A stretch of DNA of 64,000 nt from Styela clava (lineage: Eukaryota): assembly GCF_964204865.1 (NCBI RefSeq), contig NC_135257.1:6200001-6264000 (forward strand), read 5' to 3'. Shown here in pieces: positions 4,091 through 38,322 of this stretch. Below the pieces are notes generated by a model, which saw nothing but the letters and a program-made list of their open reading frames with translations, ran no database searches and was not told the DNA's origin. Within the stretch, counting starts at the first letter, position 1. Every line of letters begins with the position of its first letter. A program made the position numbers and the translations under genes.

Positions 4091-6331
<2,241 letters not shown>

Positions 6332-9485: not shown

Positions 9486-10270
9486 CTCTAAAGTCTAAAT
9501 CCGACCTTGCGCATGGCTGTTTTGTATTCTTGGTTGGTAGAGTTGAGATAAATGTTTTTTTCATGATTGCCACGACATATCCCCTAATTTATTTGTAGTA
9601 GTATATATTTACGATTCTACCTATGTCTTATATATTTACGATTCTACCTATGTCTTATTATTATTGTCCTTTGGAAATTTTCAATGCAAATTTTGTAGTA
9701 AATATTTTTTTTTAAAAGCTGGCTTAACGGCAAGCGTAACTAACCAATCGTTTGTAATAAATTATTAATATAAAACGTTCAAAACATAGGTATAGGTATT
9801 TCATCGAATGACTTACTACATACAGTTTTTTGAATCACTGCGAAACGAAAATTGGGCAACCGTGATGTACCGCCTGCCATACACAATAAGCATTAAATTT
9901 AACTGCTTTTCTTTGTAAATTAATCTAAGTTTTCTACGAATAATTGGTCCTCAATCATCATTGAAGCATGGGTGGACGTTGCATATCATATATTTTCAAA
10001 CGAAAAGTCCATAGGAGATTCGGATGTAACAATTTGAATTAGCGTCTTGTAGCGACATGTAACTTAAGTAAAAAGTTACCGCAAAATTTTATTTGCAACG
10101 TATAGATTCATTGAGCTTAGTGCATCATAACTTTGCAACCACTTCCGGTGTTTGTAAAATGTTTTTCGTTTCTGAGAAGCAATATAAGATAAGAGCGAAA
10201 TAACAGCAACAACCGATTCAGTAACGTATATGTACAGTTCTAGATAGCAACAAAAGAAACCAAAAAGATA

Positions 10271-12095
10271 ATGCGTGAGATAATACATTTGCAAGTGGGA
10301 CAATGCGGAAATAGAATAGGATCAAAGGTCAGTAGAACATGGAGAAAAATCATTTGTGAGCAAGGTCGTAATGACCAACCCAGACACAAGGTGCTTGGAT
10401 GTTTTGGCCGATAATAATTCACAATTATACCGGCACTACGTTGTGTGTGATATTTGTGTGAAACAAGCCAAGATCATCGTTCACTGCATTGAAAATTGTA
10501 TCAAGGGTGTATACTATGTTTTGGAGAAATACACTTGAATCAATACACAAGTCCCTAAAATCTTTATTCACATCATAATTTAGCGAAATCGTGATTCCTT
10601 CTATTATACGGCCCAGTAATTGGAATTTTGTTCTTTAACCTACTGCATTAAATAATACCATTTATTTCAAGTATTGGGAAACTCTCATTGCGGAGCACGG
10701 AATAAACGAAAAAGGATTCTACCATGCTAGCGCAGTGAAGAATGTTTTGGAAAGGGACAATGTTTACTTCCGAGAAATGAATGGTTCGATGATGATTTTG
10801 TCCGCTATAACTCGGTTTAAAAAAAGTATCTGAATGTTTATTTTTCAGGTCACCATGTTCCCCGTGCAGTATTGGTCGACCTCGAGCCCGACAGTCTGGT
10901 ACGCACTAGATCATGTGCTGTTGGTCAACTGTTTCGTCCCGACAACTATATGTTTGGTATGAATTTTATTTTTTTACTCGGTGTCGTATTGCTCCATTTC
11001 AACTCGACCCTACCCTTTCAGGTACCAACGGCGCGGGAAATAATTGGGCTAAAGGTTTTTATACTGAAGGTGCTGAGATTTTGGATGATATCATGGAGGT
11101 CATACGCAGAGAAACGGAGAGCTGCGATTGCTTTGAAGGGTTTCAAGTGTGCCATTCGCTCGGCGGTGGAACTGGATCGGGCTTAGGAACGCTTATAGGA
11201 CAAAGAATTAAGGATTTATATCCCGATAGAATGTTGATGAACTTCAGCGTTTTCCCTTCTGCTGAGGTATCTGAGGCTGTTGTCGAACCGTACAATGCGA
11301 CGCTGTCTATTACTAAGTTGCTTGAACACTCTGATGAAGTTATTTGTTTCGATAACAAATCTCTCTACCATATCTGCAACAAAACCATGAAGACTAAAAC
11401 TCCGCATTACAAGGATCTCAATTATTTTATTTCTGTTGCGATGAGTGGTGTTACCACCAGTCTAAGGTTTCCCTGTAATTTGAATTATTCTTTACGCAAA
11501 TTTGCACTAAATATGAATCCATTTCCACGATTGCACTTCATTATGCCTGGGTTTTCTCCTATGTCGAGCGAAAAAGGAGATGAATTAACTTCTTCTGAAC
11601 TGACCCAGCAATTGTTTCACGAAGAAAACATGTTGATGTCTTGCAATCCCGCAGACGGGCGTTACTTATCTGCATCGGCATTGTTCAGAGGCCAGGTGTT
11701 GATGGTAGAAGTAGACAAAGAAATAGCTAAAATCCAGGACGAACGTCGTAACAATTTCCCAGCGTGGATTCCAGACAATCTTTTAACAGATTACTTTAAA
11801 GTTCCACTTGGAAATCTAAACAAAGCAGCCACAGTCGCATGCAACAATACGGCAATACAAGTAATTTATTTTCTATTTCCATTTATACGGTATTGATTTT
11901 TAAATATGTTTTCAAATAATTTAAAATTAAATTCAGAAAATATTCACTTGCGTCTGTGATCAATTCACCGCAATGTTTCGCCGGAAAGCGTTTTTGCATT
12001 GGTACCAGGGCGAAGGCATGGATGAGTTGGAATTTACAAATGCTCATAACGACATCAAAGATTTAGTCAGCGAGTACCAGCAATATCAAAAATGA
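10271..12095 (+). CDS. Divergent beta-tubulin paralog, 424 aa, lacking the acidic C-terminal tail
   Basis: Exons 10271-10327, 10672-10783, 10849-10956, 11022-11860 and 11937-12095 (GT-AG, 1275 nt, no internal stop). Same four intron positions as the neighbouring gene. [21 protein letters not shown] and [11 protein letters not shown] retained. Ends SEYQQYQK*. Confidence 0.9.
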
Positions 12096-13775
12096 TGAAA
12101 TACAGTAGAAATCACCAACGCCCGTATGGACCACATGAGTCGCCCAGAAGTCCTAAATTTAAAATTAGTTCTAAAATTAGCTCAAATAACGTCGGTTATC
12201 AATAAGCTGCATATATTAATTTTATTCCTTGTTATAATTATATCACCCTAATATGAGAACCGTGATTGAACATGGAATATCCAACTCAAGCATTCTAATC
12301 AACTTTCACCCATCATTTTATTACGTATGTTGTTATATTCAACTTTATCAGTGTCTCCTCGTGGTTGAATACCATTAATAGTGATGGTTAAAGCTCAATC
12401 GAGCAAATTGGCTTTTCAGAAGTGTGCATCCAACTGGTATAGTCATTAGCCTAATCAGTACTCAGGAAGAAGCCCTCGGTTTCATAAAGGTTGGTGACCC
12501 TCAGAATATATAATGATCACAGTGAGTTAACTACTGTATCAAAATTGAATATCTCTCTCTCTCTATATATATATACAAGAAACTCGAAAAATGGAAAGTA
12601 AACAAACCATTTTAAACATTAGGCCTGATGGAGAATGTCGTCATCGGAGCATAAATTTGCATTTTCATAATTTTGGTCAGATTGCTTCCTTTAATCTTGA
12701 CGTGTAGGCAATCTCATTAAGTTTGCTGATATACCTGGCTACAATTTGTTAAAGGATTTACAACGAAACTGGAAGGGTTTGGAAATTACGCGTAAGGAAG
12801 AATAACGGAGAAAGCTCTATTTTGCCAACCATTAAAATGCAATTTGACCAAACTAAAGACGAATGCAAATTTATGTTATATTTCCCTCAAGACCTGATAT
12901 TAAAATTGTTTTGTTTATGCCACCTATTTTCGGGTGTGGGTGCATGCACCCAAGATTCTATTTTAAGCTCCTCATTTTCGTAATTTATATTTTAAATGTT
13001 TTTCATATTTTAGATATATATATATATATATATTTACTTTTAAGTCAAGTATCTCACAATATTGTTTAAATGCTTTTAATATAATATTTATCAGTAATGA
13101 CCGATACGATGTTCAAAAAATCGGGAAATGACTGGTGGCGTGCATTTTTGTACATCCCCGGAAAAGTTTCATGGCGGGCCATGCCATAACTGTAAAACCA
13201 TCAATAACTAAACTAACGTTTTCCGGAGATGAAGAATTCACCTACCGAAGAAAGTAGAAGAATGCCGACCTTATGGTACCGTCATGTGGTACAGAAAGAA
13301 ATGCTGCTATAAAACAACAAAAAGGAGTAACTATAAAATTGTATGAAGCACTCACACTTGTCAGACAATAAATAAATGTGTATACTTTTCTCAAATTTTC
13401 AGGAGTTTTTTATCGCGAAAGATTCCGGAATTGTTTAGTGAAAACCCCTAACTCGAAATATCATATTAGGTTCCGAAATCCCAACCCCAAGGAAACACTC
13501 GTACCTTCTTCATCGGCAACAGCTTTCTATTTGAATTTTGCACGTTTCAAATTTATTTCATGTTTTATCCGAGCATCTTTCATTTTCAGTCACTCGTACT
13601 CCAGAAACACGCTCGTCTCACTTTACCACACTCGTCCGACTTATCCCACTGTTCCGAATTAGTGCACATTTATGTATGTTCTGGGAAAATAGTTGAAGTA
13701 AGTATAAGAAAAGGAAATCATGCTTTTCCCGTGATGTTAGATATGAAGCTTTAGCTGTTTAGCATAAGGTAAGAG

Positions 13776-15296
13776 CAGGGGCGGATTAAGCCTCTTTGGT
13801 GCCCTAAGCACTGAAGACTTTGGTGCCCCCTCTTGTGTAATTTAATTATAAAAACAATAAACCACATTAGTGTATTATCTATTAAAAATAATTACAACCA
13901 GCAATAAATAAAACAACTTTTACGAATATTTTTAGGTTTTTTAACTGTTATATATAGCCGATATATATATATATATCGGCCGGTTACTGCCGATATGTTA
14001 TATCGGCAAACACGCAATATCGGGCCGATATATCGGTTGAGCTCTAATCCTGAGGGACTGTGACAATAAAGATTCATGCCTCCAATCTCAACGTGGATCG
14101 AAATACCAAAGGATACAAGTCACAACTGTAGTTTGAAATTTTACCGGTACCTAGTAGTCTACCTCAGGTGGTTCATGGTTGCTAGGTTGCAGTACCGCAA
14201 ACACTTTTGAAGAGGTCTCGCGGGCCGCAAGTCGGAGAAAACCCAAAAGTGATCGAAATATCGCGAGTTTACTTACTTTAAATTTAACAAACAACGAGAG
14301 TTTACCGTTCTAATCAGACTATTATTATGTTGCATGGATGGCGTTCTTTTAAAGAAGATTTATAAAGCTCTCAGTTATTCTAGAGTTAATTCCCGAGAAT
14401 TACCGTTGTAGTTTGCGCATCTCGCGTTTAATGTCGCTTCAAATTTTATTCTTTCGTGACCGATATTACTTGAAATTAAACCAGACACTGTGTGATGGGC
14501 AAGGAAATACGTTTCCGCCGTGTTTTCCTTATGTCACCTTTCTTGCGACATTCATTTTATTACGCATTGTTATATTGAGTAATTTGAAAACTTGCAGCGT
14601 GAGCAAGCTTAGTGCCATCGTCAAATACCAACTAGTTCCGTCTGAGTTGGTATTTCGGGACCTAGCTAAAAAAAAACTGAACTGTGCGGCGTTAAGTCGG
14701 CTCTGCGTTTTGTCACTACAGTCACATGGTCGACGCTTGAAAACAGAGGAGTGTTTTTACTAAAATAAAGGCACAAAGCGTTAGAAAAATGGTTTGAATC
14801 TCGGGATCCCAACCCCAGTTGGAATAGCTAAAAAAACTGAAAAAAGTTTCCCCATTAGATACAAATATACGCTAAAATTGTTCTGTGAGCCGCACGGAAT
14901 GTATCAGCATGACCGGGTTTGGACCACCCTGGTCTACTTTATCAAAAAACTCCCGACCTCGCTGACCACTAGATCGTTGAAATGCGATCGTGGACCCGCC
15001 ACATAGTGTAAATAGTTCGTTGGTCCAATTGTTGAGGAGGAAAGAATTTTTTTAAAACAAAATGCAGCAACAAGGAGAAGTCTAGAAAGAAAAACAACAA
15101 CAATTTAAGAGAACGACTCATGGGTCCATTTCGTGTCCAATAAATAAGTTTCAGTGTTTATTTTTAATAAAGAAGGTTAATATGGTACTTGAAGACGGAA
15201 AATAAGGAACATTTTGAAGTTTGCTCTAAAATTTTTGTGGTGCCCCTCTTTGCTTGGTGCCCTAAGCACGTGCTTATATTGTTTAATCCGGCGCTG
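13776..15296. mobile_element. hAT (Tip100-like) MITE carrying nested insertions
   Basis: TIRs CAGGGGCGGATTA...TAATCCGGCGCTG, perfect 8-bp TSD GGTAAGAG (13768-13775 and 15297-15304), and subterminal GGTGCCC repeats. Confidence 0.85.
14165..14931. mobile_element. hAT Charlie-like MITE nested in 13776-15296
   Basis: Ends CAGGTGGTTCA...TTTGGACCACCCTG, with TSD GTCTACCT/GTCTACTT. Confidence 0.7.
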
Positions 15297-15461
15297 GGTA
15301 AGAGCATTCATATGAAGTGAGTAAGATTCGTACAATTGTGAGACAATGATGAGAAAAAATTCTGACTTATTATTCCGCTCATGATACTTAATATCAAACA
15401 AACACCGTACAGCAAATACATGAAACATGCATTTTAGTGAAATTACACCGTACATCCACAC

Positions 15462-15665
15462 TCAGGTATAAACTTTCTGTTGCTTCCGCCTTTTAGTGCA
15501 AATTTACCCGTCACATAGTCTAAAATGCATATTTCCGTACAGTAAAAGAATTTCCCGTCATTCCCGCTTATGTAAAATTTCCCGTAGTTCCCGCGTTTTT
15601 TTGCTTCGCCTGTCGTTCCCGTTTCCCGCATTTTAGGGTTGCAATTTTTTGACATGTCAATCCTA
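15462..15665. mobile_element. Degenerate MITE remnant with TTCCCG subterminal repeats
   Basis: Repeated TTCCCG, terminus GTCAATCCTA, and flanking ATCCACAC/ACCCACAC as a possible TSD. Confidence 0.4.
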
Positions 15666-15799
15666 ACCCACACCTGGCGACGCCATCCAAAAATTACGTC
15701 ACTACGTCGTCACAATTACGTCATGGAGCTTGCCAATTAGACGTACGATCGCCCGAAACGGCATCGGCGCCGATGATAAAGAAGAGACTAAAATCTTTC

Positions 15800-16870
15800 T
15801 TGGACAAAAACCCAATTCTAAATAGGGACCAATTCGGCTTTAGAAATGGGCATTGCACTCCACATGCTATACTTGATATTGTCAGTCATTACTAAAACAT
15901 TATAGATGAAGGCTCATTGGGTTGTAGCGTATTTTTGGATCTGAAAAAAGCATTCGATACAGTGGATCATGATATCTTAATTACAAAACTTAATCACTAT
16001 GGAATTCGGGGAGTGGTCAATAAAATTGTTCGTAAGTTATCTGCAAAACAGAAGTCAATTTGTAATTTTGATTGGTTGTCAATCAATAAGTGAGAAGGTG
16101 TCGGTAGGGGTCCCCCAGGGCTCAGTATTGGGGCCTACCCTGTTTTTAATTCATGTAAATGATTTTGTCAATGCCATTAGGGCTCCAATTAAACTTTTCG
16201 CTGATGATACTAGGGCTACATTCGCCGCAAAAAACCTGTCCTGCCTAGAATATTTAGTTAATAGGGATCTTCATAGTATATCGGAATGGCTAATTAAAAA
16301 CAAGCTAAATATCTTGGAGTTATTCTAGACAATAAGCTAAACTGGCAGGGGCATATTGACCAACTTGCAGGTAGTCTGTCCAGAGCTATTGGTGCTATGT
16401 CCAAACTGAGACACTTTGTATCTGATAAGGTTTTAAGAATTGTATATTTTAGTCACATCTACAATATGGAATTGTGGCATGGGGATCTGCCCCTAAGACT
16501 TATCTGGATAGGATCAGAGTACTTCAAAATCGTGCGTTAAGGTTGATGAGTGGTACACGTCTGCGGGTAAGCCTAAGTCCCATTTATAAAAAGATGAATA
16601 TTCTTACAGTGACTGATGTATATAAATTCGAAATAGCGAAAATCATGTTTCAATTTAAACATGGAATTCTTCCTGAAATTTTTGATAGCCACTTCACAAA
16701 TTGTAGTAGAGTCCACCAATACAACACTCGTTTAGCGGGTAGAGGAGCATATTTTGTTAATAGGACAAGTTCCAGTTTGGCCCTGAATTCCATTCAAATT
16801 ACTGGTCCAAGTATGTAGAACACTATTCCAGATGACATCATAGAATCGTCTCATAGCGGTTGAAAATATA
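15800..16870 (+). mobile_element. 5'-truncated, decayed non-LTR retrotransposon (CR1/L2-group) reverse transcriptase
   Basis: QFGFR, FLDLKKAFDTVDH, GVPQGSVLGPTLF and LFADD motifs, broken by stops and frameshifts. Confidence 0.88.
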
Positions 16871-17914
16871 ATTATATGAGGTATTTCATAAATAAATATT
16901 AATAAATCGAGAGATAACTTCTCTGTGTTGTCTTTTTTACATTTCAATACCCATTTCACTCGCGATTTGCATCTTTATCTTTGCAAATATAATCTATTAA
17001 TTCAGCTCTTTCCTATATAGGACATTATATTTTTCTCATGATCTGATAGATATACAGTTCAAGAGTAATTTCAATGTATGTAACATCAACAGTTTCCATT
17101 CTAAGCCAACTATTGACTATTCAGCATTTGTACCTTTTGACATGATATGAAGTTGTAGTAGTTACCATAAACCCATACAATGTTACCTGATTAAATTGGA
17201 CGGCAATTCCTTGATTCCTTATCCCTGATTTTAATTTATGCAATTTTGTCAAGTGGAAATCATCTAGACCTAGTAATAGTGTGTGTGGTTTTATAGTAAA
17301 TGGTGGTATCTAAAATTGTACTACTGTCATTTAAAATGAAATCCACTATATCACATTGTATGTATATTATATCATAATTCAATAACTGTTCAGTTCAGCA
17401 GATATCTGGATGAAATTTTGCTATTATATGTAACCTGTAATTAGGTTTTCTTCGTTGCATTTTGATGTGACTATGGTAGTTCTTCACATATAAATGTATA
17501 GCATATTGAACTTTTATTTGAGTTCACATGTCTAGAGTTTACATTATTTTTATTTATATAGACTATTACTAGACTTGCTGTGGAAATTTTTCTATTGTTT
17601 ACAATTTCTCGCAATTCCACTACATTAGCTTATCAAATATTGACTTGAATTGCATTTGTCTCACAAGTTATGTAAATTATTATTCATATATTATTGTTAA
17701 AAATTGTTTATGTAATATTGCATATTACTGTTTCTTAAATGACATGCAGACATTTCTCAACCACGATATTTACAGTTACTCTTTATATGTTACTAGTACT
17801 TTAGGAAAATAGGTACGGTAAATTGGCTCTTATTCTCCTGAATTTATTTTTTAGTTCTGGCCTATAAAATTAAACAATTTATGCTGTAGGTTGAAGGCGT
17901 GCGTTCATTACCGT

Positions 17915-18185
17915 GTGTTGATATAAATTGCTGAATCGTATTTTCTGTGTTAAACCAAACTTGGATTAAAATTCTCAAATTATCATTATTGTATATGTTG
18001 ATATGAATTGCTGCATTCTATTTTCTATGTTAAACCAAACTTGCATTTATATTATTAATCCAATCTAAAGGATTTATATCCCATATCATTATTATTGTAT
18101 ATGTTGATATGAGTTGCTGCATCCAATTTTCTGTGTTCAAACTTGCATCTATACGTCCCAAATCATTATTATTGTATATACTGAT
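17915..18185. repeat. Imperfect short tandem repeat, 3-4 copies
   Basis: Recurring ATTATTGTATATGTTGATATGAATTGCTGCAT...TTTCTGTGTTAAACCAAACTTG. Confidence 0.6.
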
Positions 18186-19288
18186 AAAAAAGGCTACATT
18201 CTCTTCCTACGTTGAGTCCATACGAATTTGGGACATCTGCCCTTATATGTGGGCAATATGGATTATAAAAATTGATAAGGGACTGAACAATAATGATAAA
18301 TCTTTCGCAACTATTCAGATTCTGGAATATGGTATTTTGTATAGTGGAGATCATTTAGAGTTTAACCTTTGTATTATTCCAATTGTATATAATGGGTGAT
18401 GTCACCTAACATTGTACTTCTGTCATTCAAATTGAAACACATTATTACAAATTGTATGTCTATTATATCATATTTGATCGAACGGGTCCTAGGTATATTA
18501 ATATATATATTATGTATAGTATATTGCAGCTTATACTCTTCTTTTGAGCATACATGTCTTGAGTACTTCCTGTATATATTATACAACTCGTTCTGGCCTA
18601 CTGTGGTTCTAGTCATCATTGAATAATTTCCTCCTGGTCTCATTCCATCATTATAGTTGTGGAATACTACCAACTCAATAGTACATCCTGTCAAAATGTG
18701 AAAATTTTCGAATCTGTAGACAGTGGCTTGTCAAATCATAGTGTCTGATATAAATCAACTATTTACTCAATCATAAAACATATGTCAATCATTTAACATT
18801 AAAATAAATCCTCAAACACAACTGGCAATGTTAAATGCCAGTTGTGTTTAGGTTGAATTGCTCTACATTCGAGAACCTTTGACTTGATATATTAATCTAG
18901 TACTATTCCCTAGAAATTATTCTCCTCCTAATTATGTACAACTCGCCAATGGTGCTTTTTAAATTCATATTTTGTGATAGTGAAATTACGATGCTGCTTT
19001 ATATTTTACTGTTACATCGACTCATACTATTATATTTATTTACATTTTTATTTATCATTCACTTGTCTTCTTATATATTACTTTGACATCCCTCTGCAAG
19101 CAAAAAAATATTATACATAATATAAAATAATGAATATGGGGGGGGGGGGGGGGAGCTGACTCTGATGACCGTATCGCTCCTCCCGGTCTATACCGGTATG
19201 TTAGTCGTTATACCGAATAACTTTATTGTTGTATATTTTTATTACTGTTGCTCGCTTCTTTTTCTGGTTGACAAATAATAAATTTCTC

Positions 19289-19425
19289 GAACTCGCGATG
19301 TCGATCAACAAATATAAAGAAAATAGACATGGCGAGTTAGCCCTCTCTCTCTCTCTCAAACTCGCGATGTCGATCAACAAATATAAAGAAAATAGACATG
19401 GCGAGTTAGCCCTCTCTCTCTCTCG
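19289..19425. repeat. Direct duplication of a ~68-bp unit ending in (CT)n
   Basis: Two copies of AACTCGCGATGTCGATCAACAAATATAAAGAAAATAGACATGGCGAGTTAGCC(CT)n. Confidence 0.85.
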
Positions 19426-19611
19426 AGCTCGCATCCAACGGCTGTTTAGAATAAAATGAGACTGGCGGTAGCGAAATAAAACTTTTGTAACTAACTAGGT
19501 TAGGTTGTATACCGTACACCGGTACTGTTGATTTATACTCACACAATCAATTAATATGGTGATATATTTAGCATGCTTAGATGAAAATGATAAGTTGAGA
19601 CATCCTTTGCG

Positions 19612-22600
19612 GGGTCTCCCTAAAACCAGGCACTTGCGAATTCAGGCACTTTGATATTTTTTTATTTTTACCGTACGTCATTGGGGTTTCCAATTTAACT
19701 GACAAGATAATTAGACTTTAAATAATTTTTCGCATCCCTATATTGCAATAAAACAATATTATTTCCAATTTATTAGGGTATAAATAATTTTTCAATAGTA
19801 AAATGTGGCAACATTGATTACAAAATATAGAAATCAGGCACTTGTGAAATTTCAGGCACTTGGTCAAAACCAACGACTAACATACCCTGCTCGTGGTATT
19901 CAGTTACAAACTTACAATAGCAATTTTTTTTTACCGTCAAAACCTATTTTACAATGTATCTGATTACTCTAAAGCAGAAAATTAAATATATACACTTTGT
20001 ATGGTTGAATTTACAACATTTTGGTAAAATACAATACCGTTTGTGACTGATGGACGCGTGTCATATTCCGCAAGTGCCTGATTTTTTATTTTTCTCGGTG
20101 ACAGTTGCCATATTTTTTCGCAATTATTTTCTTAAATTATTTGCGTCAGCACTTACTATTCTTTGCTTTCTAACGCGAATTCATTGTTCCACAACAATTT
20201 GAGCGTTTTTAATATTGCAATGAGCAATACCATTTGACAACATATGGTCAAGGATCGTACTTTCTGGATTTATTTGAAATTGAATATGAATAATAAAATC
20301 TGGCAACCTCAAGCACAAAATACTAAAACCAGGCACTTGTGTGAAATTTCAGGCACTTCGTAAAAACCTATTTCTCGATGTTTTTAAACACTTTGAAGCA
20401 GAAAACTAAAATATACACTCTTTTTTATGATTGAAATGACGTCTTTTTGGTAAAAAAACAAAAACGATTGGGACTGGTGATGAGGGGTCAAATTTCGCAA
20501 GTGCCTGATTTTTCATTTTTTTCGATAACAGTTGCCATATATTTTCGCAACAATTTTTCTAAATTATTCGAGTCAGAACTTACTAATCGTTGCTTTTTAA
20601 AATAAATTCCTTGTTCTACAACAATTTCAGCGTTTTTACAATGAGCAATATTATTTGACAACATATAGATAACCATCGTACTTTTTGGATTTATTTGAAA
20701 TTGAATAGGAAAGATAAAATCTGGCAAACGCAAGCACAAAATACTAAAACCAGGCACTTGTGAAATTTCAGGCACTTTGTAAAAACCTATTTCTCGATGT
20801 TTAAACTTACTTTGAAGCAGAAAACTAAAATATACACTCTTTTGTATGATTGAAATGACGTCTTTTTTGGTAAAAAAGAAAAACGATTGGGACTTGTGAT
20901 GAGGGGTCAAATTTCGCAAGTGCCTGATTTTTCATTTTTTTCGATTACAGTTGCCATATATTTTTGCAATACTTTTCATAAAATCATTTTCGTCAGATCT
21001 TACTAATCATTGCTTTTTAAAGGAAATTCCTAGTTCTACAACAATTTCAGCGTTTTTAATAATGAAATGAGCAATATCATTTGACAACATATAGATAACC
21101 ATCGTACTTTTAGGATTTATTTGAAATTGAATGGGAATGATAAAATCTGGCAACCGCAAGCACAAAATACTAAAATCAGGCACTTGTGAAATTTCAGGCA
21201 CTTTGTAAAAAAATATTTCCCGATGTTTTTGATTACTTTAAAGCCGAAAATCCAAATATACACATTTTGTATGACTGAATTTGGTATTTTTATTGTCCAA
21301 AACAAGAAGAACTGTCACTGGTAGGAAATGTAGCAAGTTTAGCAAGTGCCTGATTTTTTGGTTTTGTCAATGGTAGTTGCCATATCTCTATAATTTTTGT
21401 CTTTTTTTTTATATGTTGTTTCCCTATTGCATAATTTTATAAAAGTCAATGTTTGTATGAGAGCTCCACTTAGCATAAATGGAATTAAACTTTTAACATC
21501 AGTATCTACATCCGGAAATCGATATTTAATTAAACCAATCACGCTTTTGCAAAACTATTTGAATATTGTAAAGTTTGAATGACATTGTGTTGTTTATTTT
21601 TATTAATTCAAAAGTATGACATATGTATTATTTAAATACGGGTTCAAATTTGACAGATCTGTAGGGAATATTAGTTAATCAGACGACATCTTTATAGTAA
21701 TGTTCGGAACCCTTGAAATTGGTTCAAAACTTCTTCTAATTTGTTATAAACATTTCGACGTAATATATTACCCAGGTAGTAACAATCGCATCGTTATAAA
21801 CAATCTAATTTGTCTTCTGGCAATATCAGTTCGAAATTCCAGTTTTAATTGTTATCGGACGACGATTTTAATAATGTAATTTGGCCTATGACTTCATATA
21901 AACTACATAACAGAAACAATTGACTTATGTCGTATAGAATCTTTTATAATACGTATCCAAGTCACATTATCCCCTAATAGAACATAATTTACCGTTCACA
22001 AAATTTATAAAAGCCTGTGCAAAATCTATATTGACAACCAGCGGTGTTCAACCACGGCTACAATATAGATATTCAATCACTTGCTGTTGCTGTTGTATAA
22101 TATTCTTTACAACCTGAAGATCTGACTGTAATATCTTTTCATGGATAGTTTATGGAATGGATTTCATGGATAGTTTACGTAGAATTATTTGTACATTATT
22201 TCATGCTGTAACAGCTAACTGTAAAACACGTAGTTCCTAAATAAGAAGAATGGCTACAGGATGGTAAATACGAGATGGCAATGTCACCTAAACAAAATTC
22301 GCTCGGCAAATGACATCAGGTAGCTGATATGCCCAAAGTTAGGCTTAAAAGCATCGTTAAACGAATGTTACAATAAAAATCCTTTAATATTCAACACGCC
22401 AGTAGTCAGTCAACGAATTTTTTTGCGTTATTCAAAAAGTTACAAATATATAAAAACGTAAAACAGTAATTGTTTTTAATGTCACAGAAGCCGTATTAAA
22501 CTCTCGATTATAGATCTTTCTCCATCAGTAATCGGGGATATAAATTTGAATTTAAATTTATTAAGGAGATAAAACATTAAAAACACAACTTCACAATGGA

Positions 22601-25196: not shown

Positions 25197-26654
25197 TCCT
25201 TTGCGTGTCGAGTACCGTACGTTTTCTTGTCACTTTGTTATCCCTTGCACAGTATTCTAACCAAACACATTCAATTTATTATATTTGCCCTCACGATTGA
25301 AGTTGTAAGTAAAACAGCCACCTTTCCATCTCCCATTACAAGAAGACCCTTCGTGCAGTTGCAGGCATACCGGTACCGTACCCGTTAACCGCCGTCGCAT
25401 GGCGAGTTAGCCTCCACCACCCCTTGTATTGAGTCTGTTCCGCACACATCTCATTCATGTATTCAGCTACCATTAGCAGAGGCAAGCCTATTACAAGTAC
25501 TGATTTACATTATATACAGATAGGTACGGTACCGGTATAATTTAAAAGCGGGAGATCGATATTTAGCCCAATGCTCGAGACATAGATCAGACGTCGTCAG
25601 GTACCGGTACCGGTATCACAGTATTATACTGCGTGAACACCCCTATAAAATTTTAAACCCTCCTCTGTTTGTTAGCTCCTCAATTTCCGTTTTTTAATTC
25701 TAGGGTATGAGCTGATTGCATTTGCAAATTCATGCAGTCATTTGTCAACTTATGAACTCATCGCTCATGACGAAAAAAACCTCCACTTACTTGAATTACC
25801 GTATCATTCCCAACTACTAATCTGCTAATTGCATCTTGAAACTATACAAAGATACATGTTTTACTTAACTTTGTAGCCAAATTAGTTTAAGCATAAATTC
25901 AACCGTAAGACTCAGACTTTTTCTGTCTTCTGGTCATAGCCCAGTAGTCATATACCAGTATACCGTAACAGTATAATGATATACCGGTACCGCATGTATT
26001 CTTGTTTGCGATAGAATTTTTCATCAATTATAAAAATGCGTATTGAGGAAACTGGGTTCGCAGGGGGTTGAGAAGGCTTAAAATTCCTTGTATGCTATCT
26101 ATTACTGTATCATTCATACATTCAAATTTTGTGAAAACTGTGCTAGTTGACGTGTAATGCACGAATTTTCTTGGCAAAATACTGCTTATAAATCCAGGGA
26201 TTTTGTGCAAAATTTATAATATTTTAGTTTTGTTCATTTTTGAAAGAATTTTACAAACATGTTTTTTGAAATAAAATAAATATCACAATAATTAGGTCTA
26301 TGTAAAACAGAAGTTTTGGTAGGAAAACTGACATTTTGAGTTGGTACATGTGTTTTCAATTAATGTATCATTCTATGAGTTTTATAAAAATCAATATACA
26401 TATATAATACATAATAATATTTGCATTAATAAATTATTTTATACTTCTTGTTCTTGGACTTGCTTATTCTTTGTTTTAAGTTGGAGAATTTGGTTATTGT
26501 CTGATTTGGAAAGTTTGATATAATTGATATGCCAATAGTAGTAAGATAATCACATTATTTTTACTATAAGGATTGGTGCCTATTTGACTATATCAATTCA
26601 ATGTTGTTTTAGGTTATAGTCCTAGAATACAGTGTATATCTCATCAAAATAGAC

Positions 26655-27650
26655 ATGGCAGAAAACGGAGATGAAGAGATGGAGATTTCATCTCTATCAA
26701 GCAAATTTATGACACCTATCCAACGTGCAGAAAGGTTGAAGATTCGACAAGAATACAGAAAACTGATCAGTGAAGTCCAAGACAAAAAGGAAGAATTTGT
26801 AAAACCAGAAAGTGGAGATTTATTGGATCGTGTCAAAAAAGCAAACTCTCTATTTCAAAGGGTGAAATCAACGAGGGAGGGAGCTTTAGATTCACGGTTT
26901 ATGGCATTATCAGTGTCTATTGCGGGGCAAACAACAAATCAACTTCAAACAGATCTTGTGGCATTTCAACCTGAGGAATTCATGGAAAAATTAGTGACCA
27001 GAATGGATGGGCGTTATATTGGTGAAGAAGAAGATGAAGTTCATATCACTTCAGAAGGATGGGAAAATTTCGGACAATATTCCTCTAAATTTTTTTCTAG
27101 CGTGAACCCTGTATTGAATGTTATGTCTGGTACATTTGAGCACAGTGCACTAAGAAGGCGACACACACAGTCTGACCCCATAGATAACGATACAGGGACT
27201 AAAACACAGCCGCAGCACCTTACACATTTCGAGGGGGATCGAAAAGAAGCCACACCAGAAGAAATTGAAAGAGTGCTTGGAGTGATTCAACAAATGTATG
27301 AACAAGATCCAGTCCCAATAGACTATTTTGAACTTGTTGTAAATCCGGATTCTTTTGGTCATACTATTGAAAACATGTTTCACATGGCATTTCTCGTCAA
27401 AGATGGCTTTGTTCGTGTGTTTTTAAATGAAAATCAAATACCAGTTGTTGAGCCAGTCAACCAAAATGAGGAAGATAATACTCAAACCGAAAAAAAATGT
27501 AATCAAGTCATGGTATCAATGTCAATGGATGAGTGGAGGGAAATTATTGATATTTATGAACTAGGAGGAAGAGCTCCATTCATAGAACCTTCAGAGCCTA
27601 AAAGCCCTGAGAGAGCTAATGGTCCATCATCAAAAAGAGTTAGAAGCTGA
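26655..27650 (+). CDS. NSMCE4A: NSE4/EID3-family kleisin subunit of SMC5/6, 331 aa, single coding exon
   Basis: ERLKIRQEYRKLI and REGALDSRF N-terminal motifs, plus the Nse4 C-terminal motif DYFELVVNPDSFGHTIENMFHMAFLVKDG. Confidence 0.9.
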   Translation: MAENGDEEMEISSLSSKFMTPIQRAERLKIRQEYRKLISEVQDKKEEFVKPESGDLLDRVKKANSLFQRVKSTREGALDSRFMALSVSIAGQTTNQLQTDLVAFQPEEFMEKLVTRMDGRYIGEEEDEVHITSEGWENFGQYSSKFFSSVNPVLNVMSGTFEHSALRRRHTQSDPIDNDTGTKTQPQHLTHFEGDRKEATPEEIERVLGVIQQMYEQDPVPIDYFELVVNPDSFGHTIENMFHMAFLVKDGFVRVFLNENQIPVVEPVNQNEEDNTQTEKKCNQVMVSMSMDEWREIIDIYELGGRAPFIEPSEPKSPERANGPSSKRVRS

Positions 27651-34626: not shown

Positions 34627-37600
34627 TCCAAACGGAAAGATTTCGTTTTCATCAACGAAGTCAAAAACATGGAGAAAGTGTGTCTGTCAGCTTTTTACGC
34701 AGATTTAAAGCGCCACTCCACCACATGTGAGTTGGGTGCCGTGTTGGAAAACACACTTCGCGACAAATTCGTAAGTGGACTGAAATGCAGCCATATAATA
34801 TACAAAATCGATTGATAACTGAGAAAAATTTAACATATGAAAAAGCATTGCAAATGGCTGCAGAAGTTGAAACTGCTGCCAAAGATACAAAAGTGCTTCA
34901 AGGCAAAAATACTGCAAATTATGAAAGTAAATATGCTCATTACGTGAAGCGTAATTCGTAAAAGAAATACTACAGGTGTGGTAAAATTGGACATTGTCCA
35001 GATAAATGCTGATAGAGTTATATTGTCTGAATTGTAATAAAAGAAGTCACACCTAATTTATGAGCAGATCAAAACCACACCACAGAAGAAACTCCCAGCC
35101 GCGACCTGGGCGTCAACAAAACTTCACAAAAGAAGCAGAGAAAAGTGTCGCTGCAGATAAAGTGACATCAAAATTTCTATCGAATATAAAAGTGGCAAAA
35201 GTAAATGGAGAAGAAAAAGTGTTCATTAATGCCACTAATATCATATGGATACCTGTCAAAGTAGCAGGGAAATAAATACCAATAAACACCTACTGCTGTA
35301 AAAATGAAAACGTATACAGGTGACCATAAAATCACTTGGGCTGCTACCAGTTGAAGTTTAATGTGGAAATGAAGGGGAAAAACTGAAATTGTATGTAGTC
35401 GAAAAAGAAGGACCACCATTAATAAGAAAAGATTGGATCAGAGCATTGAAAGTTAACTGTAATAAATAGGAGAATGTGAATAGCCTGAATTCAAATGAAA
35501 ATCCAATTGATATAGAAATAAGATTGGATACCTTGCTGAAGATTTATTTAAAGATGAACTTTCAAGGGCCATAAAACTAAATTTGTATTGAAGAAAAATG
35601 CATCCCCGGCGTTCAAGAAGGCACGTCAAGTAACGTTCGCCATGAAAGCAAGAATTGAAGGAGGAATAATTAGTAAAGTACCACATAGGGATTGGGGAAC
35701 ATCTATTGTAGCTGTGACAAAACTAAATGGTCAAATACGTCTCTGGGGTGATTTCAAGATAACTGTCAAGCCAGCTTTAAAGATCGATCAATACCCATTC
35801 CCAAAAGAAGAACTGTTTGTAATTTTAGCTGGCGGACAAAAGTTCACAAAATTGGATTTGAAAAATGCTTATTTGCAATTGGAAGTGGATGACAACTGCA
35901 AACATCTACTCACAGAGTACTATATCGTGTGAATAGAATGGTTTATGGAATTGCATCAGATCCAGATCTGGTAACGGGTTCTGAAACAAATTTTGCAAGG
36001 ATTGCCTAAAGTGGCATTTATATTAGATGACATGATTCTCAACGGATTAAATGGTGAAGATCACCTCAAGAATGTGGAAAACGTCTTAAAGAGATTAATA
36101 GAATATGGATTGAGACTTAATTTAACAAAATGAGAATTTATGAAAGATCGTTTTACCCTCTTTGGCCATGATATTGGTTGTTACGGACAACATAGGGCAG
36201 AGAAACTTGTCAAAGCAATTGTGGATGCACCACGTCCTGAAAATGTATTTCAAGTCTGAGCATTCACTGGTGTGATTAATTTTATGCTAAATTTTGCAAA
36301 AAGCGGGCAAGTGTGCTACAGCCAAATTATTGTCTATTGAAAAGGGGTCAAAAGTTCATATGGTAAAGCCTAAGACATGTGAACAAAGCGAAACAATTAA
36401 TTTTTCTAAATGCGAAACAATCAATTGCATCTGATCAAGTATAGGTGCATTATGACCCTAAGAAACCAGTAAAATTGAGTTGTAATGCTAGCCAATATGC
36501 CATATGGTATTGGTTGCGCATTATCAAATGTAATGAAAGCTGGATCAGAGAGACCTATTGCTTTTGCGCCACGAACATTAATTAACAAAAGCAGAAATGA
36601 ACTATTCGCAAATTGGAAAAGAAGCTCTGTTCATAGTCTGGGATGTAAAAAAGTTTTACCTACATTTACACTGATTGCAGACAATCAACCATTTTTTGTT
36701 GTTGCAATGTTTCTAGCATCGCATTCATATGATATCGAATAATATCGTAAAACTGAAAATCATGGTAACGCAGATTTTTTATCAAGATTTCCATTGTCTG
36801 AAAATTCACATACAGATGATGAAAAATATTTCTTATGTTGCATTTTAAAGGTATTGCCCGTCACAAGTACGGAAATAAGAAAAGCAACCACTAATGAGTT
36901 AATATTGTGTAAAGTGGTAGATTTGGCCCTGAAAGGATGGCCAAACAAAATCAAGAATGATGAATTCAACCGTATTTTAATAGAAGACATGAACTCAGTG
37001 TTCATGAAACAGAGTTGTAAGTTCACCCAAATTACGTTCAAGAATTTTAGAAGAATTACAAGAGTCACATCTGGCATATTCAAAATGAAAGCGTAGGCTC
37101 GATCATATGTCTGGTGGCTACAACTTACTAACTCAATTGAAAATAGAGTGAAAGAATGCGCTTCCTGCCAGGAAACACAAAAAACGCCTGCAAATGCTGA
37201 ACTACATATGTGGGAATTTCCGGCAAATGGGTTGGAACGAGTTCAAGTTGGTTTTGCAGGACCGTTCGTGAATTCGATGTTCTTGGTTGTAATTGTCGCG
37301 CATTCAAAATGCGCAGAAGTGATCCCTATGCGTTCTATCACATCGCAAAGAACTACCGAAGAACTCCGACACATATTTACAAAATATGGTATATGATATG
37401 CAATCAACTAGTGTCTGACAATGGACCTTCACGTCGGAAGAGTTTGCAGGCTTTTTGAAGAATAATGGAATACGTCATTTACGATCTGCACCGTTTCATC
37501 TGTCAAGTAATGGTATGTCAGAAAGATTTGTCGGAGTTTTCAAGAGTTCTCTTCTCCGAGGGAGGAAGAAGAAAGGTGATATTTTTTACAAACGAGATAA

Positions 37601-38322
37601 TTTCTTACTGGCGTACAGAAATACACCTCATTCGACAAAGAACGAGTCACCAGCTATTATATTGATGAAGCGATTTTTGCGATCACGTTTAGACTTGGTC
37701 AAGTCTGATCTAGCATCAAAAATTAATGAAAAGCAAACTAATGTACAAAATTCAAAAAGATATCCCAAAACAAGATATTTCGAACTTGGTCAAGCAGTCT
37801 CGGCTCGTGACTATTCTAGCAAAAAGAGAAGATGGGCCAGTTGCACAATCACCAAATATATGGGACTACTGACATACCGGGTCAAAATTTTTAACGGGTA
37901 TTTTGGAAACGCCCTATTTTGATCACCAGCTGAAAATGACGAACTTTGTCGAAGATATGAAGAACCGGAATGGTACAATTGGAACCGGTCAAGCACATCG
38001 TCAGATGAAGATCATGTCCAGCCACAGGGTAATCAAGGAGCAGGCCAACATCCTGAACCCAGGCGCAATCCTCTCAGAAACAGGAGACCGCCAGACAGAT
38101 TAAATTAGTGATAATGATAATGAACATTGAATTGAGGGTTTATTGTAAATGTGTTAATTTAGTGACATTGTTTATTTCTTCCTTAGGGGAGAGGGGTGTT
38201 TTGTATTTACATCATATTTTGTTGTTTTTAACACACGAGGTAGATTTGTGATTATGATGTCATAATTGCGTTTACTTGTCTGCGTGCTTGTTATTCATCC
38301 TTGTGTTTTAAAGTGTCTAGCG

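Follow-up and report, generated by a model that had tools for sequence, protein, structure and literature searches.

The beta-tubulins of chordates rank with the most conserved proteins, and the idea of a tubulin code rests on their tails. The locus described here raises the question of what a chordate beta-tubulin might be for when its sequence has diverged heavily and it stops where the acidic tail should begin. It lies in a window of 64,000 nucleotides from the ascidian Styela clava (contig NC_135257.1, positions 6,200,001 to 6,264,000 of the forward strand), in which a sequence-only reading had picked out an intact, tail-less isotype next to a canonical one. The canonical gene (gene A, 4091..6331, plus strand; exons 4091-4147, 4691-4799, 4944-5054, 5141-5988 and 6113-6331) encodes 447 amino acids with the EGEF motif and an acidic tail. 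The divergent gene (gene B, 10271..12095, also on the plus strand) begins 3,939 nt downstream of the gene A stop.

Several other features were recognized in the window. At 659-2634, upstream of gene A, a 233-nt unit is repeated about five times in tandem, with an 800-nt insert between units three and four (1357-2159) that has 25-nt inverted ends and is probably a MITE. Single open frames are found at 26613-27650 (NSE4/EID3 domains, an SMC5/6 kleisin) and at 54282-55766 (494 codons, MFS transporter domain), and a trypsin-family protease exon at 49181-49687 on the minus strand. Broken retroelement pieces lie at 15981-16818 and 35558-37922: a fragment of reverse transcriptase (PF00078), and short frames resembling an LTR-element pol relic that have no Pfam match. 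The 64-kb window gave no Rfam matches.

Structure, identity and transcription of gene B

The five exons of gene B are joined by GT-AG introns of 344, 65, 65 and 76 nt, and yield 1275 nt and a protein of 424 amino acids, closed by a TGA and a second TGA directly after it. Exon 1 (10271..10327) holds codons 1-19, with the MREI start and Gln15 replaced by Arg. Exon 2 (10672..10783) is one residue longer than the canonical version and carries a Tyr20/Phe20 allele, while exon 3 (10849..10956) is one residue shorter and has a changed 54-57 loop. Exon 4 (11022..11860) contains the intact GGGTGSG signature, the T7 loop, the M-loop and the H10-S9-S10 region, and the coding part of exon 5 (11937..12095, to the TGA stop) keeps 20 of the 21 residues of canonical 384-404, carries E410N and is without an acidic tail. 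The protein ends in SEYQQYQK, two residues past the last tyrosine of helix 12, where gene A has a 21-residue acidic tail. The coding body has no stops, frameshifts or broken splice sites, and its internal indels are whole-codon (one residue gained near 44, one lost near 54-56 and three lost in the M-loop). The earlier statement that all indels are multiples of three thus holds for the coding body, but the double TGA may itself be a frameshifted relic (see below).

Gene B is a member of the beta-tubulin family. Its protein matches PF00091 and PF03953 above cut-off, is identical to that of gene A at 242 of 423 aligned residues (57.2%), and is 55-57% identical to the five other S. clava beta-tubulins versus about 37% to alpha-tubulin (tblastn). 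Its PDB matches are all beta chains among the 60 of 72 sequences listed. An AlphaFold model (pLDDT 74.9, pTM 0.79), which leans on an alignment of mostly canonical tubulins, overlays beta chains with a Z score of 51.6 and an rmsd of 2.3 over 415 residues. The predicted protein is letter-for-letter XP_039272068.2 (P0001 in our collection), "tubulin beta chain-like [Styela clava]"; the gene is therefore already annotated in RefSeq, under an automatic name only, and is unstudied.

The splicing predicted from the sequence is borne out by assembled contigs. Gene B was compared with the contigs of 8 of 15 sequencing runs, none of the 15 being recorded as RNA. All four joints are present in contigs of runs X1 and X2 (study P1) and X5 (study P2), and in study P3 two joints were found in run X6 and one in X7. 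As the locus is present in the genome as a single full-length copy, these spliced contigs do not come from a retrocopy. It is the splicing that shows gene B to be transcribed, since the runs are not on record as RNA. The DNA-like run X10, which may be the assembly's own sample, covers 10000-12544 unspliced with no differences. Contig depth, which cannot rank genes, is 3-35 for gene B versus 1478 and 6155 for a contig with a loose end that reads as gene A.

The tail-less end is likewise confirmed. The X1 and X5 contigs continue past the stop into the 3'UTR (12096..12961), colinear with the genome and with no further joint, reaching 12961 in X1 and 12635 in X5. This colinearity argues that no tail exon is added in the assembled transcripts, and a search of 12096-20000 with the C-terminus of gene A gave no credible match to a tail-like exon (best E 0.33). 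Since contigs drop rare isoforms, there may be a minor splice form that bears a tail. A 25-nt insertion allele at 12337, within a repeat in the 3'UTR, was seen in X1, X2 and X5.

Relatives, origin and the loss of the tail

S. clava has six beta-tubulin genes (A, B and L026-L029) and four alpha genes, and gamma, delta, epsilon, zeta and misato are each represented once. This census comes from searching the genome twice, with every candidate scored (25 of 25 and 16 of 16), and from aligning 15 loci with splicing allowed; the labels zeta-like (L031, G000:C3:16288886-16290658), delta (L037) and epsilon (L036) were read from translations. None of the four alpha genes is strongly divergent, and there is accordingly no co-diverged partner for gene B. 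EGEF is present in A, L028 and L029 and absent in B. The gene L026 (G000:C17:19335711-19341847) has seven introns, is 88% identical to gene A and has a tail without EGEF. About 100 kb upstream of gene B, on the same contig and strand, lies L027 (G000:C9:6105874-6108521), which encodes 441 amino acids, 81% identical to gene A, with a short tail that also lacks EGEF. L027 has one ortholog in the collection, the unnamed Logan protein P0098, which is 92% identical over residues 320-425.

Gene B had been taken for a tandem duplicate of gene A because the two have the same intron positions. The positions do agree (codon/phase 19/0, 55/1, 92/1 and 375/0), but they are common to A, B, L027 and L028, four of the six beta genes, and so do not identify the parent. 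Codon sharing is equally even-handed, with 86, 72, 84, 79 and 76 of 203 codons in common with the five paralogs (86 with gene A, 84 with L027). The tubulin phylogeny that the earlier reading had proposed leaves gene B on a long branch and does not establish descent from gene A. In a quick tree of 33 proteins the branch is unresolved; under the LG model gene B joins L027 with a bootstrap of 41, on a branch of about 0.8 substitutions per site (0.79) versus 0.00-0.17 for the other S. clava beta-tubulins. In an AU test with 10 proteins under the LG model (2000 replicates), none of the four placements tried was rejected, with P 0.52 for B with A, 0.66 for a clade of B and L027, and 0.35 and 0.21 for the others. 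Nine residues shared uniquely with L027, against none with A, gave derivation from L027 no support beyond long-branch convergence. Recent gene conversion from A into exon 5 of B was also considered and set aside, for the 13 of 25 identical codons there are matched by similar values in other paralogs (8-12). From its chromosomal position, gene B is likely to have arisen when a gene nearby on the same chromosome arm was duplicated long ago; the trees and the codon counts fit either neighbor as the apparent source.

No ortholog was recovered outside S. clava. With exon 4 as query (8000 candidates scored), nothing above 60% identity other than the protein itself appeared among the best 120 of 6521 matches, and residues 270-385 gave 4 matches among 59 candidates, the best non-self match being 43% identical. 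The full protein, searched against representatives at 50% identity, reached at best 57-63%, with canonical or fragmentary beta-tubulins, among the best 150 of 16,802. None of 65 pattern matches in metagenome contigs was confirmed, and runs X14 and X15, from two other organisms, contained only pieces of 35-70 nt that continue as other tubulins. Gene B is so far known from one species and appears to be lineage-restricted; the missing orthologs mark the limits of the collections and do not prove absence.

Two events could account for the loss of the tail. Read in the next frame, the bases around the stop give Asn-Asp-Glu-Ile-Gln-stop, and a frame-shifted reading of the canonical tail of the paralog L029 gives the same double TGA. 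From this short match, the double stop may be what is left of acidic Asp-Glu codons after a frameshift. The other candidate is an old non-autonomous DNA transposon at 12106..12503, which starts 10 nt past the stop, has 14-nt terminal inverted repeats and is represented by about 38 copies among 41 genome matches. It is flanked by a degenerate 8-nt target duplication (one other copy has a perfect one), and we take it to be a hAT-type MITE. No recognizable tail-coding remnant was found on either side of this element. The tail may thus have been lost by a frameshift or by the MITE insertion, and the insertion may have caused the truncation or followed it.

Selection and protein anatomy

Synonymous sites of gene B are saturated against every paralog (pS 0.78-0.90), and the dN/dS of paralog pairs is therefore unusable. 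Selection was judged instead against a background of 79 full-length beta-tubulins, taken from the matches to the exon-4 and residue 270-385 queries; gene B, its allele, three internally duplicated records and lengths outside 430-470 amino acids were left out. Gene B agrees with gene A at 109 of 128 near-invariant sites, at 63/92 and 54/120 sites of the intermediate classes, and at 16 of 87 variable sites (rho 0.50), and 77 of its residues were never seen in the background. When neutral evolution was simulated to equal protein divergence, none of 2000 sequences stayed open (mean 8.7 stops) and at most 90 of the 128 invariant sites were kept. Fourfold sites were 78% identical in these simulations, versus 34% observed. 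Divergence that tracks conservation, and the failure of the neutral simulations, argue that gene B has historically been mostly under purifying selection. This selection was long, and it went along with a rate of amino-acid change far above that of the paralogs.

Present-day constraint may be weak. A second NCBI allele carries Y20F, Y248D, R251L and C377R; the run contigs contain the changes at 248 and 251 and four silent changes. A Gln423-stop allele in exon 5 (12087), found at low depth in contigs of X6 and X7, removes two more residues. Four missense changes and one stop thus segregate versus four silent ones, giving a pN/pS of 0.26-0.33 that is biased upward by two missense alleles from a protein-only record, and neutrality is not rejected (P 0.06-0.10). 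The proposal of a selected isotype accordingly stands for the past and is tentative for the present.

For the anatomy of the protein, the split into plus-end and minus-end faces and the limits of the loops in the gene B alignment are assignments that we assume. Residue classes are those in the accessible portion of S6 Table of PMC9581425. By these classes, gene B keeps 36 of 45 GTP-site residues versus 206 of 382 elsewhere (P 0.0007), and the changes at the site are mostly conservative except Q15R and K174E. Lys252 (254 in structure numbering), which faces the N-site of alpha-tubulin, is retained. Of 48 interface positions on each face, 33 are identical on the plus-end side and 28 on the minus-end side, a difference that is not significant (P 0.40), and both proportions are above those of a divergent Naegleria beta-tubulin (0.44 and 0.42). 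Of the motor contacts, 15 of 23 are kept for kinesin and 8 of 16 for dynein, and the surface changes include E410N, E157D, E158L and K154R. The MREI tetrapeptide had been read as a sign of autoregulation; it is indeed kept, but it says little on that point, as Arg2 is also a dimer-interface residue (PMC9581425).

Other regions have changed more. The T7 loop and the start of H8 (codons 244-252, 11474..11500) carry G244C, Q245N, A248Y or D, D249S and, at 251, Arg or Leu, in front of the retained Lys252; D249S and K350L count among the more notable losses. The M-loop (11558..11593) is three residues shorter, with Tyr281, Arg282 and Ala283 missing in the alignment, and 4 of 15 positions are identical; shortened M-loops also occur in other divergent beta-tubulins, including that of Naegleria. 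The 54-57 loop is one residue shorter and retains a single glycine of the usual two, position 56 appearing as G56N in some alignments and as a gap in others. A sliding scan found H10-S9-S10 (canonical 328-372, 11717..11851) eroded beyond the prediction from family conservation (scan-corrected P 0.033) and canonical 45-89 more conserved than expected (P 0.023); the 20/21 identity of 384-404, in spite of many silent changes, has P 0.18 after correction. Among 64 positions of human beta-tubulin disease variants taken from the first part of S1 Table, 31 are changed in gene B, compared with 7 in L027, 3 in L026 and none in L028, and at three positions gene B carries the disease residue itself (E205K, S278G and R380C). 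The pI is 5.75 versus 4.7 for the canonical protein.

Once family conservation is allowed for, the GTP site has 36 residues kept against 31.9 expected (P 0.09), the motor sites 17 against 20.5 (P 0.10) and the lateral loops 15 against 13.2. Selective loss of lateral contacts was dropped as an explanation, as it does not exceed expectation given site conservation. No residue class departs clearly from expectation, which argues that the surface pattern is mostly general relaxation and not sharp specialization.

Candidate roles and known counterparts

The reading that we favor, at a probability of roughly one half, is that gene B encodes a minor, non-axonemal isotype that would dimerize with canonical alpha-tubulin and co-polymerize. 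Its product would bind GTP and pair with ordinary alpha-tubulin, for which the four canonical alpha genes supply partners, and would then enter the microtubules of some cell type or state. Lattice patches containing it would carry no glutamylation or glycylation on beta, would bind kinesin and dynein less well as a result of the four motor-surface changes, and would have altered lateral contacts with different growth and shrinkage. They would also be poorer substrates for severing, a process in which the beta tail has a role. Such a protein would be constrained in fold and nucleotide binding, and freed from the constraints imposed by motors, tail enzymes and axonemal partners. Tail-less beta-tubulin polymerizes faster and undergoes more catastrophes (PMC6022761). 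Co-assembly is favored by Lys252, by interface identities above those of Naegleria beta-tubulin, and by the spindles of Naegleria, whose component tubulins share 58% identity with the human ones (bioRxiv 2024.01.08.573270). Counting against the isotype are the changes at 31 of 64 disease positions, the altered and polymorphic T7 loop (which packs on alpha-tubulin), the lack of an ortholog, polymorphism for which neutrality is not rejected, and the absence of a co-diverged alpha. A fuller version, tentative and rather doubtful, makes the protein "code-silent": selected, translated and built into or capping specific microtubules, it would lack the tail on which glutamylation, glycylation, severing and VDAC block depend, and would combine a blunted motor surface and a short M-loop with an unmodified alpha, its tail perhaps having been cut by the transposon in the last exon.

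The polymorphism would suit a duplicate that once had a function, lost it recently and is now transcribed in early decay, although we consider this unlikely. Few haplotypes yield four missense alleles and a stop allele, and some of these changes fall at core sites (248, 251 and the equivalent of Arg380), which points in that direction, as do the 77 residues unseen in the background, the neutrality that is not rejected, and the lack of an ortholog when the milder L027 has P0098. However, the reading frame and every splice site are undamaged, the transcript is correctly spliced, pN/pS is about 0.3 even with its upward bias, the stop allele costs the protein no more than its last two residues, and saturation of synonymous sites against every paralog argues that selection lasted long. 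A quite unlikely reading is that of a non-polymerizing or end-capping tubulin, whose conserved plus-end surface would bind alpha-tubulin or a microtubule minus end but which could not extend a lattice, so that it served as sink, cap or template. The near-complete 384-404 segment (H11-H11'), which grips the next alpha-tubulin, would fit this, together with the eroded 328-372 region (minus-end face and lumen), K350L, D249S and the deleted M-loop tyrosine. Yet the two faces do not differ significantly (P 0.40), the 384-404 segment does not survive correction, lateral-loop erosion is as expected, and short M-loops occur in other divergent beta-tubulins.

A reproductive-tissue isotype, in non-axonemal arrays of spermatids or oocytes or as a minor part of the sperm tail, is suggested by analogy with fast-evolving insect testis and ovary tubulins; we regard it as improbable, and it overlaps the favored isotype if the array is non-axonemal. 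The sperm-axoneme role raised by the sequence-only reading is weakened. The determinants of the axoneme include the tail with its EGEF motif plus three acidic residues, and Gly56 of the internal variable region, in the 54-57 glycine loop (PMC2880298, PMC9934393). Gene B lacks the tail and the motif and has lost a residue and a glycine from the loop; Glu410 and three M-loop residues are gone as well. Both Ciona axonemal beta-tubulins have EGEF (PMC4427456), and three other S. clava beta-tubulins can supply it. Less likely still is a stress-induced, tail-less beta-tubulin with free dimers unable to block mitochondrial VDAC. This notion derives from C. elegans TBB-6, which is divergent, truncated at the C-terminus and induced 50- to 70-fold under mitochondrial stress, the VDAC idea being the speculation of its authors (PMC4946786). 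The case is one of analogy only, as gene B and TBB-6 are homologous only at the family level.

As a natural, expressed beta-tubulin that has no tail, occurs in the sister group of vertebrates and lacks a co-evolved alpha, gene B is a ready-made test of the need for the tail and M-loop in animal cells, and of the means by which a divergent isotype keeps from poisoning the lattice. A survey of divergent animal beta-tubulins could show how often tail-less forms arise, and the database matches suggest that they recur in animals. Among 148 new representatives (from the best 150 of 16,802), 65 are 400-480 amino acids long, many of them divergent beta-tubulins with short or non-acidic ends; 20 representatives were looked up, and these included four named animal models (Prorops, Daktulosphaira, Litomosoides and Ptychodera), not orthologous to gene B. 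The corresponding entries P0279, P0311, P0380 and P0302 (acorn worm, phylloxera, bethylid wasp and filarial nematode) are gene models of beta-tubulins 41-56% divergent, their tails absent or odd. As deposited, the gene models Prorops nasuta XP_066594709 (423 amino acids, 41% to gene A), Daktulosphaira vitifoliae XP_050545309 (437, 50-52%) and Litomosoides sigmodontis VDM92123 (416, 47-49%) are full-length beta-tubulins with no tail or a non-acidic one, and at only 37-42% identity to gene B they are not its orthologs. A literature search that covered few subscription journals found no chordate tail-less divergent beta-tubulin and no study of gene B, though supplements of PMC4202323 and of the bioRxiv preprints could list tunicate tubulins; a search on foraminiferan beta-tubulin gave no match.

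Gene B can be placed beside several known systems. It has the fold, GGGTGSG, MREI, Lys252 and intron positions of canonical animal beta-tubulins (TUBB2B/TUBB4B type; here gene A, L028 and L029), at 55-57% identity, but differs from them in the missing acidic tail and EGEF, the M-loop shorter by three residues and the loss of Glu410. Acidic tails have also been lost from retained paralogs among E-hook-less tubulins (mammalian Tub1H/TUBAL3, insects, ciliates); these are alpha-tubulins, and the passage of PMC4202323 on them names no tail-less animal beta. TBB-6 is likewise a divergent extra beta-tubulin with a truncated C-terminus, and its expression is restricted (PMC4946786, PMC8987236, bioRxiv 2022.02.27.482202). 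Stress induction is a feature of TBB-6, and an independent origin of the two genes is assumed. Tetrahymena BLT1-6 are extra divergent beta-tubulins that lack the tail motifs for glutamylation and glycylation and exist beside essential canonical ones (PMC9294176), although these are ciliate proteins with alpha-like partners, likened to gene B by description. The mitotic tubulins of Naegleria, at about 58% identity to human when human tubulins are more than 72% identical to one another (bioRxiv 2024.01.08.573270), are also put to non-axonemal use and are divergent at lattice contacts and in the lumen (PMC9036621). In Naegleria, however, alpha has diverged in step with beta, and a charged tail persists on the beta, whereas S. 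clava has no co-diverged alpha. The class is therefore not new, as TBB-6, the BLTs and the Naegleria tubulins attest, and gene B adds an ascidian member to it.
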